Below, one piece after another: positions 21,784 through 56,062 of a stretch of DNA of 56,130 nucleotides (the first letter of the stretch is position 1; the number at the start of each line of letters is the position of its first letter). A program made the position numbers and the translations under genes. Origin of the DNA: a virus (Duplodnaviria; Caudoviricetes); the IMG/VR virus record IMGVR_UViG_3300020165_000025, positions 1-56,130 of that record. One strand, given 5' to 3'. Below the pieces are notes generated by a model. It was given only the letters and a program-made list of their open reading frames with translations, did no database searches and was not told where the DNA came from.

Positions 21784-22601
21784 TAATCTTGTACCGTATC
21801 AGGAGTTAGAAAGGGTTGGTCAACTTGATCGTCTGTATATTTGTGGAATTGGGAAAGTCTATCTTGTTCTTTTAGCATTGCCATTCTCATTTTTTCCATT
21901 TCGACACCGTAAGATTTTGTTATCTCAGGATTAGCAATCAAATACGCCATGTATCCAGAGAAGCTTGTTTTGCTGTCCTCGAAACGTTTCACCCTTTGCT
22001 CACGGGTAGCTTTCATTTCTTTAAGCATAGAATTTTTCTTAGTTTGAAGTTCCCTATAGTCTTTGTTCAGAGACTCTTGAGAAGCCTTCAGGGAGGCCAC
22101 CTGACGCTCCATATTAAATATTTGGTCTAGATCTTGCTGATCAGGATCTCGCGCCCTCTCTTCAGCTATGAGGGCAGCCAACGCGCTTATTTGTTCTATG
22201 TTATCTTTGTTATGTTTTAATGACCTATTCATAAGTAGTTCTAGTTTGATCAAGTCAACCACTTGTAGTTCTTCTGTTGGAATAACATCATCTTTAAACT
22301 GTGAAATAATTCTAGCCCAATGATATTGAAAAAGTTTTAGTTCGTCTTCAGTAAACTGTTGTTTTAGCTCTATCCAGTAGGGGCGAAACTGTAAATCGAA
22401 CTGAGCTTCCTCTTCTGCGGAGTTTTGCATCCAAGAGGGCTTCTCAAACGTACCTTTGGCGACCTTTCTCTTGATAAAATCTAAAATGGACTCAGGAGTT
22501 CGGTTTAGCTCGGTTGCCACTCGGTTATGGTCGCGATCTAGGTTGTTTTTGATGAAATTTTCTTCATCTTTGGATATTCTACCCTTTTTCATGGTATCCA
22601 T
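21783..22601 (-). CDS. Coiled-coil protein with N-terminal HTH-like segment (terminase small subunit candidate)
   Basis: VATELNRTPESI HTH-like segment, then a long coiled coil; same operon as terL. Confidence 0.5.
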   Translation of the reverse strand: MDTMKKGRISKDEENFIKNNLDRDHNRVATELNRTPESILDFIKRKVAKGTFEKPSWMQNSAEEEAQFDLQFRPYWIELKQQFTEDELKLFQYHWARIISQFKDDVIPTEELQVVDLIKLELLMNRSLKHNKDNIEQISALAALIAEERARDPDQQDLDQIFNMERQVASLKASQESLNKDYRELQTKKNSMLKEMKATREQRVKRFEDSKTSFSGYMAYLIANPEITKSYGVEMEKMRMAMLKEQDRLSQFHKYTDDQVDQPFLTPDTVQD

Positions 22602-23094
22602 GCTCCTCTAGTATGTCTGAAATCATATCTATAATTTCTTCTCTGCGTTGTTTGGTAACATAAACGTCGTTGATTATCTTTAAGTAGTCCATTCTTACTT
22701 GTGCGGGCAAATATTTATTAACTAAATCAACTATATCTCTGTTTTCTATGTCGTCATAGGATATTGAATACTTTTCTCTTTCGTCAATCAACTGCTCTTC
22801 GTAGTCTAGTTGTGCTGGCTGAAGAACTTTGGATCGATCTTCGTCTGAATTAGCTAAAAAATGATTGTCTCTAACAAAGTTTTTGAGTCTGTTGGAAAGA
22901 TTGACACATAGGAAGTTATAAAGAGGGCGACATCCATCATATCTATTAAGGGCTTCCATACATATAATAAAGGCTTCCTGTTTCATGTCATTAACTGTAT
23001 AGCCATAGAATGTATATCTGGGTGCAATCAACTGACATACAGTTGTTATTGTCTCTACAACCTCTTCTTCTGTCATTCCCTTGGGAATATTCAT
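22579..23094 (-). CDS. Sigma70-family (region 2-like) phage transcription factor
   Basis: DMKQEAFI.C.EAL.RYD...PL.NFL...L.NRLKNF.R; start moved to MNIP. Confidence 0.7.
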   Translation of the reverse strand: MNIPKGMTEEEVVETITTVCQLIAPRYTFYGYTVNDMKQEAFIICMEALNRYDGCRPLYNFLCVNLSNRLKNFVRDNHFLANSDEDRSKVLQPAQLDYEEQLIDEREKYSISYDDIENRDIVDLVNKYLPAQVRMDYLKIINDVYVTKQRREEIIDMISDILEEHGYHEKG

Positions 23095-23095
23095 G

Positions 23096-23884
23096 TTAAT
23101 CCTCTGTTTTGATCTTTCTCCACTTGGTTCCGTCGAAAAATTCAAGTGAGTTGGTTGATTTATTGTAAAATATAAGCCCTTGTTCTTTGTTTCTCGGTTT
23201 TGATCGAGGTTTGAGAACCATTTGGGATAATAATAACTTAGACTTAGAACTTGTTAGCTCGAAATGGTCAGAAGATATTAAAATAGGGTCAGAATTAGAC
23301 TGAAGTGTTTTTACAACGTAGTCTGGGGATATTATAAGAGATATATCGTCAGAGTCTAATGCTTGAATCTCTCCATCTAGTCTTCCTAGAACCGAGTTGT
23401 TTGTCAACTCAACTGGAGAGGGCGATAATTCGTCTGTACTACATATAATAGAGTGATTTCTGTAAAATAAATCTATGTAGTTGGTGGGAATGTAAGAGCC
23501 AATGACTGCATAAGTGTCATCGGGTAGAATAAAGCACCCGTTGGTGTCTTTCATTGCACATGAGGCAACCTCTTCGCTCTCTATCGACGATAGGGCGGTT
23601 TCTCTGTCTAAGAAAAATGTATCTCTGGATTTTTTAACTCGTGCGATTCCAGACTCTTTCCTTGTAAGCTTTCTAGAGTTTATGTCTAGACTGTCGAAAG
23701 TTTCCAAGGTGTAAAAGAAGCCAGTGTCTTGATCAAAAGATTTTCTGAGACTATCTTCTTCTTGTATATATCCAGTGAGATGACTTCCAGTTTTTGCAAG
23801 TTCATCGACTTCCAGTAAGTGTACTACGCCATTTATAAATTTAGCAGGACTTACAGTAAAGTTTTTATTCCTTATCTTCGTCAT
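23096..23884 (-). CDS. Hypothetical protein, possibly structural
   Basis: 262 aa; C-terminal G.IFYN......EFFDG.KW motif seen in fibre proteins. Confidence 0.65.
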   Translation of the reverse strand: MTKIRNKNFTVSPAKFINGVVHLLEVDELAKTGSHLTGYIQEEDSLRKSFDQDTGFFYTLETFDSLDINSRKLTRKESGIARVKKSRDTFFLDRETALSSIESEEVASCAMKDTNGCFILPDDTYAVIGSYIPTNYIDLFYRNHSIICSTDELSPSPVELTNNSVLGRLDGEIQALDSDDISLIISPDYVVKTLQSNSDPILISSDHFELTSSKSKLLLSQMVLKPRSKPRNKEQGLIFYNKSTNSLEFFDGTKWRKIKTED

Positions 23885-24023
23885 TTTGCAAAAGTTCCTT
23901 TAGTGGTTTATCTTCTTCTTCCAATTCCTCTTTGATTCTTGTCTTTAGGGCGGCAGTAGCCTTGCAGCTAAGTTGAGCCTCTACCTCTTTAACAGACGGC
24001 ATCTTTTTCTTTTTGTTAGTCAT
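23865..24023 (-). CDS. Small charged protein (52 aa; not in ORF track)
   Basis: MTNKKKKMPSVKE...QNDEDKE; AAGG RBS; first gene of the minus-strand block. Confidence 0.6.
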   Translation of the reverse strand: MTNKKKKMPSVKEVEAQLSCKATAALKTRIKEELEEEDKPLKELLQNDEDKE

Positions 24024-24080: not shown

Positions 24081-24164
24081 GAAAAGTAGCTTTTTTCCAA
24101 AAAGTAATTTGAAGATTTGGTAAAATAGACTATAATATAGATGATTAATGGTTGAAAAGTGATC

Positions 24165-24445
24165 GAATCCAGTAAATAATTGTACAAATCCGAAAAAGGG
24201 GCTGTGGTAACGAGGCCAAGTCCATCTGGAAAGAAAGTTACATGAGAGTGTCCAAGCACTCCGAGATTAGGCAAATTAAATCTAGGCAATGTCCAGCCAT
24301 GACAACCTAGTACCTGTGAAGAGTCCGAGAGGGCGAACAAAGCAAAGAATATCATCTAGTATTTAAGACCTAATTGCTTTCTAACTCAACCTGTACCTTG
24401 ATCTTCTTCACAGGTATAAATGGCCTTGGTGTAGAGTAATATAAA
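24165..24445 (+). ncRNA. Large structured ncRNA, copy A (double pseudoknot, unassigned)
   Basis: Follows TATAAT at 24131; paralogue of 48545-48835 with compensatory changes in five helices. Confidence 0.75.
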
Positions 24446-24645
24446 AAATTTAGGGGCGATCAGGGTCTGTTAGGCACTGTCTAATTATTATTTATGGGCC
24501 GACTTATATACTTTAGGTAAGACACCCCTATTTCTGCTCCGTGATTGCGTATGAACCACCCAAGCTTTTTTCGCGTGAAAAGCGGTTAACTGGTCTGAAG
24601 ATAAAACACCCCCAACCCCAATTTCAGCCGCAGGTAGGGCGAAGC

Positions 24646-24678
24646 GACGTAAACCATTGGCATATAAGGACTTACGTC
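24646..24678. repeat. Palindromic element (single) TAARYCCTT-N7-AAGGACTTA
   Basis: gacgtaaaccatt-ggcatat-aaggacttacgtc. Confidence 0.85.
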
Positions 24679-24735
24679 AATTTTATCGCGTAATAAAAAA
24701 CTTTGATAAAAATATAAAAAAAGACTGGATAGCTA

Positions 24736-24763
24736 TTGACTTTTCTGCCGATATATGTATAAT
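24736..24763 (+). promoter_or_regulatory. Sigma70 early promoter, first of about 27 similar ones
   Basis: TTGACT-16-TATAAT with GCCGATA in the spacer. Others near 25068, 26850, 28773, 31095, 31292, 31564, 31929, 32733, 32921, 33286, 34454, 35844, 36297, 37503, 37645, 39113, 40194, 41517, 41979, 44166, 44866, 47095, 48324, 48855, 51171. Confidence 0.9.
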
Positions 24764-25390: not shown

Positions 25391-25475
25391 GACGCAAACC
25401 CTTGGTGCGTAAGGACTTAGGTCGGCTGGGGCAGCAAAAATCGTCGTAAACCCTTGGCGTATAAGGACTTACGAC
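25391..25475. repeat. Paired palindromic element (52-bp period)
   Basis: Two palindromes with a GC-rich linker. Confidence 0.9.
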
Positions 25476-25508
25476 AACAAAAAAGTTGGATTATTCTCAA
25501 ATTTTGAT

Positions 25509-26551: not shown

Positions 26552-26637
26552 GACGTAAACCCTTGTCACATAAGGACTTAGGGCGCTGGGCGCTGCCGCC
26601 GCCGGCCGTAAACCCTTGATACATAAGGACTTACGTC
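26552..26637. repeat. Paired palindromic element (53-bp period)
   Basis: Spacers gtcacat and gatacat; GC-rich linker. Confidence 0.9.
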
Positions 26638-26757
26638 AATTTTGATTTAAAATAATATCAAAAAAATTTTATTTTATTGTGAGTTTTTGACCTAACGTGT
26701 CACACTGGTATGCGATAATATATATATAAGAAGTTATTAAGCAAGAAAGAGGAAAAG

Positions 26758-34232: not shown

Positions 34233-34304
34233 TGTGTGGTAGCTCAGTGGTAGAGCGATGGACTGTTAATCCATTGGTCGCAGGTTCGAATCCTGCCCGC
34301 ACAG
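34233..34304 (+). tRNA. tRNA-Asn(GTT)
   Basis: Complete cloverleaf; ATGGA-CT-GTT-AA-TCCAT. Confidence 0.95.
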
Positions 34305-34308
34305 CTTT

Positions 34309-38693: not shown

Positions 38694-38847
38694 GTCTTCC
38701 TCTAAATAGGTGTACAGATGTGAGCCAATTTATAATTCTATTATGTTCACTTGCCATTTTGCATTGGGTTGCGGAAGATTGGTAAGATACCTCGACGGTC
38801 ACTATGTGGCCGTTTTTTTTTGCTTTTTTTTAAAATTAAATAGATTT

Positions 38848-38880
38848 GACGTAAGTCCTTTAATACCAAGGGGTTACGTC
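38848..38880. repeat. Palindromic element (single, last copy)
   Basis: gacgtaagtcctt-taatacc-aaggggttacgtc. Confidence 0.85.
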
Positions 38881-38965
38881 GCCGCTGGCCGCAAACCGCA
38901 TACCAACGTAATATACCCATATATAAATATGCACACACATATGTATTAGCTTAACTAATAATATA

Positions 38966-48319: not shown

Positions 48320-48365
48320 TTCGGTTGCAAAACCGATGACTGTAGACTATAATAGTTTACGCCGT

Positions 48366-48439
48366 GGACTGGTAGCTCAGTTGGTTAGAGCAGGGAACTC
48401 ATAATTCCTTGGTCGGGGGTTCGAGTCCCTCCCAGTCTA
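48366..48439 (+). tRNA. tRNA with CAT anticodon (Ile2-like, or elongator Met)
   Basis: Full cloverleaf; CT-CAT-AA loop; no initiator GGG/CCC anticodon stem. Confidence 0.9.
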
Positions 48440-48444
48440 CTTAC

Positions 48445-48518
<74 letters not shown>

Positions 48519-48544
48519 CTTGTGGTAATGGTAGCACAGTGCCA

Positions 48545-48835
48545 CGTTCTTGTAAAAATTTGTATAAAAAAGTTAGCGGGTGAAGTTATCTTTCTTACCC
48601 TTAACAAGAAGATAGGTTGCAGCGGAGTGAACGACCACTCCAAGGTATCGAAATAAAATTATAAATCTAGGCTATGATCTACCACTGTCAACCTAGTCCT
48701 GTGAAGAAGCACAGAAATTTAGCATTGAGAATATACTAGCCTGTAAGATACTGCCTATCAAAGCTACTTAATTACTTGGTGAAGTCTTTACTTCTTCTTC
48801 ACAGGTATAATGTGGTGTCGGTACGCAATTATCTA
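48545..48835 (+). ncRNA. Large structured ncRNA, copy B
   Basis: Directly downstream of the tRNA pair; paralogue of 24165-24445 with covarying helices. Confidence 0.75.
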
Positions 48836-48917
48836 AAATTTTCTAAAGTACCACTTGACAAATGACGATGTATAGACTATAATAGGGTAGTCAATCACAA
48901 TTAACCGAGGATTTCAA

Positions 48918-50066
48918 ATGTATAACTTATGCTGCATCAGTAACGAACTCAAAGAGCAAGGCTACAGCTTTCAAACCATGACGTGGAAGCGATTCAATCA
49001 GTTAATAGAATCAGAAGGTGAGGCTTCTGCGTTGACCGAGCTAGGCGAGCGTTGGCTCAACAATGTTCGCGTCACGTTCATGTCTATCCAACACTGTTAC
49101 CAGAATGGCTGGGGTTATCGTGTTTCTTCATCTTTATTTCCCTGCTTGACTCATCCAGAGTTTGTATATGGCATTTCAGATGTTCCGCAATATCGTGAGA
49201 TCATAGAAGAAATGAAAGCTATTGCAGAATACAACGAGGACTGGCAGGTGCGTCTGTCTACTCATCCTGACCAGTTCAACGTACTTGCGTCAGAGAACCA
49301 GTCAGCAGTAGAAAAGACCATTACAGAACTTAATCATCACGGTTGGGTTATGGATATGCTAGGTTGCGAGCGTAGTTACTACAATCCCATCAATATCCAT
49401 GTTAATTGCACCAAGGGTGAGCTTGTAGATATTGCCTGTCGGTTTATGTCCAATCTAAACAAGTGCGATCAAAGTGTGCAGTCTCGCCTTGTTGTAGAGA
49501 ACGAGGACAAAGGTTGCTGGACTGTTGCTAACTTGCTAGAACATTTTAATATTCCAATTACTTACGACAACTTGCACGACAAGTGTAATCCGTCAACTGC
49601 TGCTACACACGTTTCCAACATGGCGGCATGTGCGGCTACATGGGGAAGCGTCAAGCCTTTGTTTCATTACAGCGAGTCATGTCCAGATGCGACCAATCCA
49701 CGCAAACACGCACAGATGCCCACAGATTTTCCTACCACTGACAGATATGATTGGGACATAGAACTTAAATCCAAGGACAAAGCGATTCGTGGGCTTTCAA
49801 TGACAGTCCAATCCCTACAGGAAGCGTGGTACAAGCAGAGTATCGAACTTGTGCGACAGTCAGAGGAAATGGGTCTTTATGACACTCAAATGAACATTGC
49901 TAATAAAGTAATGGAAGAAGATAAAAAAGTTCTTGAGATGTTGAGAAACGGTCGCGTCGCTGGCAAGCAGTGGATCGCGACCTCCGGCGAATTTGTTATC
50001 AAGAAAAGTGAGGAAGGAACTGCAAGAATTGCCGACCCACGATACCGAGAAGATAGGTCTTACTAA
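48918..50066 (+). CDS. uvsE: UV damage endonuclease
   Basis: YRVSS.LFP, RLSTHPDQFNVLAS, NIHV, RLVVENED, D..H, HYSE, H and ELKSKDKA motifs. Confidence 0.92.
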   Translation: MYNLCCISNELKEQGYSFQTMTWKRFNQLIESEGEASALTELGERWLNNVRVTFMSIQHCYQNGWGYRVSSSLFPCLTHPEFVYGISDVPQYREIIEEMKAIAEYNEDWQVRLSTHPDQFNVLASENQSAVEKTITELNHHGWVMDMLGCERSYYNPINIHVNCTKGELVDIACRFMSNLNKCDQSVQSRLVVENEDKGCWTVANLLEHFNIPITYDNLHDKCNPSTAATHVSNMAACAATWGSVKPLFHYSESCPDATNPRKHAQMPTDFPTTDRYDWDIELKSKDKAIRGLSMTVQSLQEAWYKQSIELVRQSEEMGLYDTQMNIANKVMEEDKKVLEMLRNGRVAGKQWIATSGEFVIKKSEEGTARIADPRYREDRSY

Positions 50067-55482: not shown

Positions 55483-55553
55483 GCCACTATAGTTAAACGG
55501 TATAACTGCTGATTTCCAATCAGCTATTCGGGGTTCGATTCCTCGTAGTGGCT
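55483..55553 (+). tRNA. tRNA-Gly(TCC)
   Basis: Full cloverleaf; GCTGA-TT-TCC-AA-TCAGC; U73. Confidence 0.92.
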
Positions 55554-55556
55554 CTT

Positions 55557-55630
55557 GGCTCTGTAGCATAATTGGTTAATGCACTGGACTGTCGATCCAG
55601 CGATTGCCGGTTCGAGTCCGGTCAGAGTCG
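55557..55630 (+). tRNA. tRNA-Asp(GTC)
   Basis: Full cloverleaf; CTGGA-CT-GTC-GA-TCCAG; G73. Confidence 0.92.
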
Positions 55631-55639
55631 CTCCCTTCG

Positions 55640-56062
55640 GGGATGGAGTACGGCAAGTGCTATGATTGTAGACGTTGTTATGGGAGATTATTAGGGACGG
55701 GAGGGGCAGTTCCTCCCCGCCTCCACCAGAAGCACACCACAGTGTGTAAACCGAAAGACTGATTTCGTGGGCGTTTCGGGGTATCGGACTATGAACCGAG
55801 TTAGCCATGCACGTATTGCCTAATCTTAGGAAACGTGAGAGTCTAATAGCTGGTAAAAATCCAGAAAGTCGCAGCGAGATATTATGGTGTGTTTCTGACG
55901 GGGGCGAAATAGATTCGACCTGTAATAAGAAGTAACAATTGCAATCCGTAGTTGACAGAAGGGCTACGTTAAAAATCTGTTAAATGTTAATTGCAGAACC
56001 TAGTTTCGCAATGGCAGCGTAAGCTGTCCGAGGTTCCTATACCTTGTCACCCAACATAGGCA
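55640..56062 (+). ncRNA. ssrA: Circularly permuted (two-piece) tmRNA, tag (A)AEPSFAMAA; outer ends approximate
   Basis: Acceptor end CGCCTCCACCA (55718-55728) lies upstream of the 5' end GGGGGCGAAATAGATTCGAC (55900); G3.U pair; tag ORF 55993-56022. Confidence 0.88.

Follow-up and report, generated by a model that had tools for sequence, protein, structure and literature searches.

A covarying, multi-pseudoknot RNA gene of about 300 nt occurs as paralogous copies in uncultivated marine phages

We describe a family of phage-encoded structured RNAs that has many diverse members and no match to catalogued RNA families. Two copies lie in the stretch of phage DNA analysed here (56,130 nt, hereafter the window), and we put the probability that each segment is a real structured RNA gene at roughly 95%. 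Copy A and copy B are paralogues that share 58% identity and lie on the same strand (Table 1), in agreement with a preliminary description that had reported two related intergenic segments. In the window, nhmmer and covariance-model searches each detect these two copies and no others. An 18-mer on the 3′ side of the long arm (helix H9, below) has two exact occurrences in the window, against 0.04 expected. The preliminary description had begun the RNA at 24165 and 48545, but the true start is ∼24 nt upstream in both copies; it also missed a covarying hairpin, H1, whose conserved loop forms a third pseudoknot, PKc. The bounds given for copy A are probable ones, with the 5′ end placed from the promoter and the 3′ end from the limit of conservation.

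Homologues were collected by pattern scans, nhmmer, and the covariance model. The collection holds 100 distinct full-length sequences, which form 57 clusters at 90% identity (median pairwise identity 60%, median RNA length 302.5 nt). Its sources are seven IMG/VR contigs, 110 metagenome stretches, and 26 of the 33 further IMG/VR loci retrieved by a DNA pattern that leaves out H9; the other seven of these loci were false positives. Every homologue comes from a phage or metagenome contig. Among 185,579 prokaryote genomes, the strict pattern gave no matches and the H9-free pattern gave ten, none of which nhmmer confirmed at E ≤ 10. Likewise, a blastn search of GenBank phage records with four subtypes returned no match. 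The carriers are uncultivated marine phages of ∼165–175 kb; the genomes compared span 163–174 kb. Complete genomes of 167–174 kb contain two copies each, and a spacing of 20–24 kb separates the copies in two complete genomes as well as in the window. The large terminase of the window phage has a T4-type domain, and its best matches among phages, to Microcystis and Bacillus phages, reach only 24–27% identity; neither a cultured relative nor a host can therefore be assigned.

Comparison of the homologues shows that the RNA fold of the + strand is under selection. Covariation supports 12 helices, including the pseudoknots. In alignment A3, 96.0% of 5370 cells pair, compared with 31.7–43.4% after the partners are slid; the covariation score reaches 0.498, versus 0.058–0.087 for the slid versions. 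Double-sided changes occur at 49 of the 69 pairs in this alignment, so that covariation among homologues, proposed at the outset as a check, is present. Alignment A3 excludes two of 83 distinct sequences (L031 and L104) whose 5′ ends were cut by the extraction window; both are included in alignment A6. When the alignment is fitted to a model that lacks the pseudoknots and H9, 93.3% of the cells in these elements still pair, versus 27.8–49.1% in slid versions. G–U pairs are frequent in alignment A3 (e.g., one pair with GC:42 and GU:37, another with UG:78), which identifies the + strand RNA, and not duplex DNA, as the selected molecule. The pairing of H2 and H4 depends on the alignment: 99.0% and 97.9% of their cells pair in A3, versus 61.7% and 74.8% in A5, a MAFFT alignment of 59 of the ∼100 distinct sequences in which near-duplicates were thinned and H9 variants added. 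Judging from the A3 values, we attribute the lower figures to misalignment of this region in A5. Single-sequence folding energy is unremarkable (z = −1.14 for copy A and −2.11 for copy B), and such folds cannot model pseudoknots.

Eight nested helices and three H-type pseudoknots make up the fold, together with the long-range helix H9, whose strands cross those of H5 and H7. Each of the pseudoknots joins a hairpin loop (that of H1, H6, or H8) to a distant strand, and two adjoining segments of the 3′ tail hold the H6 and H8 loops side by side. One to three unpaired nucleotides precede the pairing segment in all three loops, and none follows it in the H6 and H8 loops. Short hairpins with GNRA or UUCG tetraloops surround the core. 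While the helices drift, several loops and joining segments are conserved, with invariant columns; they include the H1 loop, the stretch that follows H6, and the linker after H9. In one copy from a complete genome, this otherwise near-invariant linker has a C instead of a U. Between copies A and B, the letters of PKa, PKb, and PKc all differ on both strands of each pseudoknot.

Much of the structure drawn in the preliminary description is recovered. Its 5′ stem (TCCAG/CTGGA in copy A and TCTTG/CAAGA in copy B) is H2, its GAGTG hairpin is H6, and its CTAGG hairpin with an inner stem is H8, and each of these is paired in nearly all homologues (Table 1). The long arm holds as a helix, H9, and compensatory variants of it occur in 11 homologues collected without H9 as bait; it is not the plain hairpin once supposed. 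Its interior carries the 3′ strands of H5, H7, and PKc, and thus the core is knotted. The two proposed loop-to-tail pseudoknots, PKa and PKb, reappear on a model-blind alignment, with solid cores of 4 and 3–4 pairs, respectively, rather than 5. Two of the four core pairs of PKa switch from GC to AU or from CG to GC in 44–49 of 101 rows. By contrast, a closing helix, GTTAC/GTAAT, had also been suggested, and here the comparison is unfavourable: a 5-nt tail complement is found in 26 of 84 members, versus 16 of 84 with the tails swapped between sequences, and part of the supposed segment is instead one strand of H5, whose partner lies inside the long arm. A further pairing, H3, stays tentative because just two column pairs are consistent.

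Table 1. Coordinates of the two RNA copies, their helices, and neighbouring features in the window. Remarks on helices concern copy A and its homologues unless copy B is named.
Feature	Copy A	Copy B	Strand	Remarks
RNA, full gene	24141–24440	48521–48832	+	A: nhmmer 24144–24436, E 6e-60; covariance model 24139–24440, 236.8 bits. B: nhmmer 48522–48831, E 1.2e-64; covariance model 48519–48832, 250 bits
H1 hairpin	24141–24147 with 24160–24165	48521–48527 with 48540–48546	+	conserved 12-nt loop; 7/7 pairs changed on both sides
PKc	H1 loop 24150–24155 with 24386–24391	48530–48535 with 48763–48768	+	98.8% paired, 5/6 pairs doubly changed; 97.0% on model-blind alignment
H2	24168–24172 with 24226–24230	48549–48553 with 48604–48608	+	encloses H4; 5/5 pairs changed on both sides
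H3 (tentative)		∼48568–48571 into H4 loop 48590–48593	+	only alignment A3 columns 56/98 and 55/99 pair consistently
H4	24200–24207 with 24216–24222	48578–48585 with 48594–48600	+	
H5	24233–24238 with 24376–24381	48612–48617 with 48753–48758	+	long-range; 96.7% paired, 5 pairs doubly changed
H6 hairpin	24246–24250 with 24257–24261	48625–48629 with 48636–48640	+	loop 24252–24256 is the PKa 5′ strand; 99.2% paired
PKa	H6 loop 24252–24256 with tail 24425–24429	48632–48635 with 48817–48820	+	covarying, model-blind alignment
H7	24265–24271 with 24369–24375	48644–48649 with 48747–48752	+	long-range; 100% paired, 4 pairs doubly changed
H8 hairpin	24282–24291 with 24303–24310	48667–48676 with 48689–48696	+	loop 24296–24300 is the PKb 5′ strand; 98.5% and 100% (inner stem) paired
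PKb	H8 loop 24296–24300 with tail 24420–24424	48681–48685 with 48812–48816	+	adjoins PKa strand; 3 pairs doubly changed
H9	24313–24321 with 24406–24414	48698–48706 with 48797–48805	+	crosses H5 and H7; 5/9 pairs doubly changed, 99.4% paired
Near-invariant linker after H9	24415–24419	48806–48811	+	
Promoter-like site TTGAAG-16 nt-TATAAT	24109–24136		+	10/12 consensus matches
Promoter-like site upstream of tRNA pair		48325–48353	+	
tRNA-Met(CAT) and tRNA-Arg(TCT)		48366–48519	+	directly upstream of the RNA; intact (ARAGORN)
Promoter TTGACA-17 nt-TATAAT		48855–48883	+	full consensus; divides the RNA from the UvdE-like gene
UvdE-like gene		48918–50066		downstream of the RNA

Both upstream settings noted at first sight are present. 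The TATAAT before copy A lies at 24131–24136, with TTGAAG 16 nt upstream, and H1 starts 5–7 nt after this sigma-70-type −10 box. Copy B follows the tRNA-Met and tRNA-Arg pair, and its H1 starts 2 nt past the end of tRNA-Arg. The two settings recur across the family: a −10-like hexamer occupies the equivalent position in 74 of 95 distinct upstream contexts, and 14 of the 95 have a tRNA immediately before the RNA, which starts 2–4 nt after it. Downstream, a new consensus-like promoter occurs within 200 nt in 40 of 106 contexts (copy B included), and a ribosome-binding site with an ORF occurs within 60 nt in 18 of 106 and within 61–300 nt in 13 more. We found no terminator after copy A or copy B. 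No reading frame is conserved across the family, and a stop-free stretch of at least 80 aa is present in just 13 of 100 members. Nor is any neighbouring protein constant: depending on the subtype, the RNA lies beside an unknown 260-aa protein, beside dCMP deaminase and SSB, or beside a tRNA and UvdE. Genes of DNA metabolism are nearby (SSB, dCMP deaminase, ligase, UvdE, and ThyX). Copy A is located where leftward and rightward genes diverge and cumulative GC skew reaches its minimum (∼22–24 kb), and copy B and a third subtype are located inside gene clusters with no strand switch. Antisense matches of A and B within the window are at most 13 nt long, which is chance level.

Two of the 20 sequencing runs with the RNA family are metatranscriptomes. 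One 254-nt metatranscriptome contig lies inside copy A (24171–24424) with no mismatches. The same metatranscriptome covers 23 of 30 bins of 12 kb around copy A, and the contig could therefore be DNA carry-over or read-through. Its ends reflect assembly and not RNA ends, and the uncovered parts are not informative.

No family in Rfam 15 (4227 models) matches the RNA. At the gathering score, it identifies only five tRNAs and a tmRNA in the window. At E ≤ 10, the two copies give only chance matches of 13–16 bits, located on the other strand or beyond the RNA, and 18 homologous loci give nothing on the RNA. Together with covariation across ∼100 homologues, this supports the initial view of a highly folded functional RNA of no assigned family. 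A literature search that included motif strings returned no description of the RNA. The motif strings themselves matched unrelated primer lists only. A screen of ∼5 million viral sequences in IMG/VR (Fremin, Bhatt and Kyrpides 2023) yielded 10,006 covariation candidates (PMC10690425). The elements presented in the accessible text of that study are tRNA-like elements, terminators, and the leaders of two phage genes, with no 300-nt multi-pseudoknot RNA among them; the present family may be among its unnamed candidates.

The architecture invites comparison with large catalytic RNAs. The strand order H5/H7(5′), H9(5′), H7/H5(3′), H9(3′) matches the crossing topology of group I P3/P7 or RNase P P2/P4. 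In common with those cores, the RNA has a long-range helix that crosses others and GNRA-capped peripheral hairpins, but it has no terminal P1-type helix and their conserved motifs are absent. No match to the Intron_gpI model was obtained at E ≤ 10 in either copy or in the 18 homologous loci; the Rfam group I intron model is weak for some phage subgroups, so that this negative is not absolute. Group I introns interrupt a gene or tRNA and have splice sites marked by a U–G pair in P1 and a terminal G. The location of the RNA, between a promoter or an intact tRNA and non-coding or promoter DNA, with no splice sites or exons, argues against a group I intron. A likeness between the conserved 3′ block and the group I ‘R’ element was discarded, as the covarying H9 pairing contradicts it. 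Models of RNase P, whose hallmarks are a P4 pseudoknot with conserved CR-I and CR-V and a terminal P1, likewise give no match at E ≤ 10, and a helix between the two ends was not found (the 26/84 versus 16/84 comparison above). HDV-type models do not match either copy or the 18 loci at E ≤ 10. The HDV-like theta ribozymes are small RNAs directly downstream of phage tRNAs in gut phages (PMC10879173). They share with our RNA a place after a phage tRNA and a pseudoknotted fold, but are shorter than ∼100 nt with a nested double pseudoknot and cleave at their own 5′ end, whereas the RNA described here is ∼300 nt long and has a promoter-like box in 74 of 95 contexts.

Other phage RNAs offer likenesses of a different sort. 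The phi29-type pRNA, from small phages with protein-primed DNA, is an early, promoter-driven, structured RNA whose loop complementarity covaries between relatives. Our RNA is similarly a promoter-driven, presumably early structured phage RNA with covarying loop complementarity, but it belongs to a ∼170-kb phage with a T4-type terminase, occurs as two paralogues, and has another fold; neither copy matches the Rfam model of phi29 pRNA at E ≤ 10. ROOL and GOLLD are RNAs of phages and prophages, often near tRNA islands, that form RNA-only homo-oligomeric cages (PMC12286853). Like them, the present RNA is phage-encoded and intricately pseudoknotted, has no known protein partner, and is in some members (14 of 95) tRNA-adjacent, a contextual trait that is no proof of membership. 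It differs from them in size (∼300 nt versus roughly 500–800 nt or more), shows no sequence or structure match in Rfam, and mostly has its own promoter rather than a tRNA neighbour. Moreover, ROOL and GOLLD are common in prophages, whereas all contigs with this RNA derive from uncultivated marine phages, and none of the bacterial genomes has it.

We propose that the RNA is a stand-alone molecule that probably acts in trans. It would be made early by the host polymerase or, alternatively, be released from a tRNA co-transcript through tRNA 3′ processing, and it would then fold alone. As has been proposed for ROOL and GOLLD, we speculate that it may form a compact RNA or RNA–protein particle aimed at the host tRNA or translation apparatus; this link to tRNA and translation is drawn from position (14 of 95 contexts) and from analogy. 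Taken as a whole, the reading as a folded phage RNA of the ROOL/GOLLD kind is tentative, and we give it somewhat less than an even chance.

Alternatively, the knotted core may be a catalytic centre, one that could process a tRNA-linked precursor or host or phage tRNA or RNA. With 12 covarying helices, three to four pseudoknots, and crossing helices, the RNA has the complexity of large ribozymes, its joining segments and loops are conserved amid drifting helices, GNRA- and UUCG-capped hairpins lie at its periphery, and its crossing topology recalls that of group I P3/P7 and RNase P P2/P4. The 14 members that begin 2–4 nt after a tRNA occupy the same place as theta ribozymes (PMC10879173). We nonetheless regard a ribozyme as unlikely, though a serious rival. 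No Rfam ribozyme model matches the window or the 18 loci at E ≤ 10, the C-for-U change in one complete genome falls in the linker after H9, and no cleavage or ligation junction is apparent; in the 74 members with their own promoter, self-processing would be unneeded. It is distinctly less probable still that PKa, PKb, and perhaps PKc are intermolecular, generating dimers, rings, or cages from orthogonal paralogues. Covariation cannot separate pairing within a molecule from pairing between molecules, the two tail segments adjoin each other at a free 3′ end, and A and B could not cross-pair, since all three pseudoknots differ between them on both strands. The loop–loop pairs of phi29 pRNA, a precedent for such assembly, were first read as an intramolecular pseudoknot, and ROOL and GOLLD are homo-oligomeric cages (PMC12286853). 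However, the loop sizes suit ordinary intramolecular H-type pseudoknots, neutral drift with compensation would give the same differences between paralogues, and the length is far below that of ROOL or GOLLD.

Two further explanations tie the RNA to its own DNA. As a cis-acting leader, for instance a sizeable riboswitch or a 5′ UTR bound by a protein, it would control the genes that follow; 74 of 95 contexts place it next to a promoter-like box, the 18 and 13 contexts with a downstream ribosome-binding site and ORF fit this role, and no terminator separates the RNA from the following DNA. Riboswitches and cis-leaders keep a constant place before a functionally coherent gene set, however, which this family does not show, and for the family we think such a role very improbable: downstream genes are unrelated across subtypes, 40 of 106 contexts have a fresh promoter, 14 of 95 members are tRNA-linked, and the pseudoknots use up the 3′ tail, with no alternative expression platform visible. 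A cis role in some members is possible, given the 18 contexts in which an ORF follows at no more than 60 nt. The smallest likelihood of all falls to an RNA for replication or packaging, or to a DNA-level element (e.g., an origin and its primer transcript, or a pRNA-like scaffold at a pac site). The position of copy A at the gene divergence and GC-skew minimum and the DNA-metabolism neighbours point that way, but copy B and the third subtype are not at a strand switch, a change in transcription direction explains the skew equally well, and the G–U pairs mark selection on RNA. The phage also carries a T4-type large terminase, and T4-type terminases are not known to need a pRNA.

Few large RNAs have many covarying helices and pseudoknots, and those that are understood are ribozymes, guide RNAs, riboswitches, or self-assembling cages. 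It is a minority prospect, in our judgement rather unlikely, that the RNA described here represents a new class of large RNA machine confined to virulent marine phages, either a ribozyme acting on tRNA or other RNA as the host is taken over or a small self-assembling particle, with a fold (a knotted core locked by three loop–strand pseudoknots) that has no solved counterpart and two orthogonal paralogues per genome. The family has ∼100 members and a well-determined secondary and pseudoknot structure, and its length suits synthesis, chemical probing, cryo-EM, and tests of activity. It clearly stems from uncultivated marine phages that are abundant, measure ∼170 kb, and have tRNAs and a tmRNA as well, and the orthogonal pair of paralogues in each genome is a ready-made comparative experiment. 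The RNA thus offers a tractable case for the role of tRNA-island-linked phage RNAs such as ROOL and GOLLD, and for whether natural ribozyme classes await discovery.

A profile and a covariance model, both built from homologues, match the window exactly twice, and an 18-nt block occurs there exactly two times against 0.04 expected. The two matches, copies A and B, are 24.4 kb apart and 58% identical over core columns; they are real paralogues, as claimed in the preliminary description. The window, whose genes include terminase, GDP-mannose dehydratase, ligase, UvdE and ThyX, is phage DNA judged by its sequence. A DNA pattern on the long arm of the RNA (helix H9) served as first bait and matched 7 IMG/VR contigs and 110 metagenome stretches; with the window these give 119 matches, 104 full length and 83 distinct. 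Because this bait fixed the long arm, IMG/VR was rescanned with a pattern lacking any part of it. The arm-free pattern matched 37 stretches, 33 of them new loci, of which nhmmer confirmed 26 and rejected seven as false; the first pattern is absent from 11 of those confirmed.

The family now holds 139 full-length matches and 100 distinct sequences, which group into 57 clusters at 90% identity (30 at 80%), with a median pairwise identity of 60%; exact-match patterns gave the initial access to every homologue, which leaves out more divergent relatives. The runs in which copy A occurs are marine metagenomes, drawn from 15 studies. No match to four RNA subtypes was found by blastn in 50,697 GenBank phage records, and two pattern scans of 185,579 prokaryote species (one genome each) found no true copy. 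Each of two IMG/VR genomes with a rating of complete, 174 and 167 kb long, carries two copies on the same strand, 19.8 and 22.7 kb apart, and one rated 98% complete (163 kb) carries a single copy. On one metagenome contig a second, degenerate copy lies ∼1.6 kb downstream of the full one.

The RNA has a conserved, autonomous, knotted fold, and its predicted 5′ end is well defined. From 81 sequences RNAalifold derived 34 pairs, with compensatory changes in 23; extra long-range helices came from an APC-corrected G-test on all column pairs, then stacking. In the final model of 12 helices and 69 pairs, 96.0% of 5370 cells pair, against 31.7–43.4% when 3′ partners are slid by 1–3 columns. Both sides have changed in 49 of the 69 pairs, and the covariation score is 0.498 (0.058–0.087 slid), a value reached by none of 500 shuffles. 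From 5′ to 3′ the RNA comprises hairpin H1 with a conserved loop; H2, enclosing H4; the H5 5′ strand; hairpin H6; the H7 5′ strand; hairpin H8; the H9 5′ strand; variable hairpins, frequently capped by GNRA or UUCG; the 3′ strands of H7 and then H5; the strand that pairs with the H1 loop (PKc); one variable hairpin; the H9 3′ strand; a near-invariant linker of six bases; and two adjoining tail segments, one pairing with the H8 loop (PKb) and the other with the H6 loop (PKa). By this strand order H9 crosses H5 and H7. The linker is not absolutely fixed, since one complete genome has C for U in this otherwise invariant stretch.

Among homologues not selected for H9, both of its strands co-vary, with five variants by base substitution and two by insertion of a single base; in a MAFFT alignment of 59 distinct sequences (A5), five of its nine pairs show double changes, and pairing holds in 99.4% of cells. 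For a test free of alignment bias, 101 matches were aligned to a covariance model of the nested helices only, and just the pseudoknots and H9 were counted: 93.3% of cells pair, against 27.8–49.1% slid, with double changes in 14 of 25 pairs. Of the five measures, further pair types alone fails to exceed the shuffles, its value being attained in 63 of 500. Solid pseudoknot cores comprise six pairs in PKc, four in PKa and three to four in PKb. The homologues thus bear out the long arm and the pairing of both hairpin loops with adjacent tail segments, as first described from the window; the closing helix described with them (GTTAC/GTAAT in A, GTTGC/GCAAT in B) found no support. H2 and H4 are 61.7% and 74.8% paired in A5, a drop that we attribute to shifted alignment of that region because the 81-sequence alignment gives 99.0% and 97.9%. 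Tentatively, the segment before H4 also pairs into the H4 loop.

Abundant G-U pairs in the helices show that the + strand RNA is the selected molecule, and a duplex-DNA element is rejected. Rfam 15 assigns the RNA to no family at gathering score, in agreement with the first description; relaxing the threshold to E≤10 yields just chance matches for both copies and nothing on the RNA at 18 homologous loci. An intron is ruled out by the flanks, since non-coding DNA borders the RNA at one end and a promoter or intact tRNA at the other. So is a protein-coding gene: no reading frame is conserved across members, and the longest stop-free stretch (median 55 aa) reaches 80 aa in just 13 of 100.

The TATAAT noted earlier before copy A belongs to a site with TTGAAG and a 16-nt spacer, and H1 begins 5–7 nt beyond it. 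Copy B does trail a tRNA pair, starting 2 nt past tRNA-Arg in the order promoter-like site, tRNA-Met, tRNA-Arg. Among 95 distinct upstream contexts, 74 have a −10-like box, 14 a tRNA (Leu 9, Arg 5) and seven neither. No terminator was found after either copy. The full or near-full sigma-70 consensus promoters of the early region suggest heavy phage reliance on host polymerase. Between 60 and 66% of sampled words are present in two metatranscriptome runs, and one 254-nt contig lies wholly within copy A without mismatch; the same libraries also reach 23 and 27 of the 30 bins into which the 12 kb around it was divided, and their contigs cannot show RNA ends, so this contig is at most a weak hint of expression.

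Immediately 3′ of copy A lies a second conserved non-coding block, common to at least 12 loci with A-type copies, with indels that are not multiples of three, several conserved C-rich motifs and no Rfam match; this block could prolong the A-type RNA at its 3′ end or encode a small RNA of its own. A repeat of ∼37–40 nt containing an inverted repeat, also present in related loci, probably acts as a phage-specific hairpin, either regulatory or terminator-like. Permuted tmRNAs are characteristic of alphaproteobacteria and of certain cyanobacteria, and the one in this window, directly preceded by tRNA-Gly and tRNA-Asp, may hint at the host group.

Coordinates of the RNA copies and other features (window positions unless a locus is named)
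Feature	Position	Strand	Remark
Copy A	24141-24440	+	model match 24139-24440
Copy B	48521-48832	+	model match 48519-48832
Promoter-like site before copy A	24109-24136		TTGAAG, TATAAT
Sigma-70 consensus promoter	48855-48883		12/12 matches
Sigma-70 consensus promoter	24736-24763		11/12 matches
Conserved non-coding block	24484-24620		3′ of copy A
Intergenic repeat, early region	24644-24684, 25439-25477, 26552-26580, 26607-26643		
Intergenic repeat, early region	38840-38882	−	
Cumulative GC-skew minimum	22000-24000		beside copy A
tRNA-Asn	34233-34305		
tRNA/tmRNA block	55483-56044		
Two-piece (permuted) tmRNA	55664-56022		RF04321, 89.3 bits
Degenerate copy	L088:5126-5365		nhmmer, 3′ third, 57 bits; covariance model 46.9 bits
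Copy with linker C	G003:C1:45534-45847 (L154)		IMG/VR record

The RNA occurs in three syntenies: with a 260-aa protein of no assigned identity on the opposite strand (39 loci), between dCMP deaminase (before, 26 loci) and SSB (after, 34 loci), and between a tRNA and UvdE (16 loci). No neighbour protein is constant across the three, and neither a reverse transcriptase nor a nuclease partner was found among the neighbours. After a stand-alone particle, our first choice, a ribozyme ranks next, though we consider it unlikely; intermolecular tail-loop pairs, joining molecules hand in hand, are less probable still. A general cis leader is rejected, as 40 of 106 distinct downstream contexts have a consensus-like promoter within 200 nt; a ribosome-binding site and ORF follow within 60 nt in 18 and at 61–300 nt in 13, the other 35 having none of these, and we give a leader role little credence. 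Least probable is a role in replication or packaging, which the position of copy A at a strand switch and GC-skew minimum would favour; there the structural genes, which run leftward, adjoin the rightward early genes, and the minimum could mark either the change in transcription direction or a replication origin.

No description of this RNA appears in the literature examined, and it may figure without a name among the 10,006 candidates of PMC10690425. It is a kind of large ornate phage RNA that belongs to no existing family. ROOL and GOLLD, phage or prophage RNAs often near tRNA islands, are described in PMC12286853 as forming cages. Our leading reading, at a probability of roughly 0.4, is a stand-alone folded particle made of RNA alone or of RNA with protein. 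The RNA would be transcribed early by host polymerase, or freed by tRNA 3′ processing, and would then act in trans; by analogy with ROOL and GOLLD, the particle may be aimed at tRNA or the translation apparatus.
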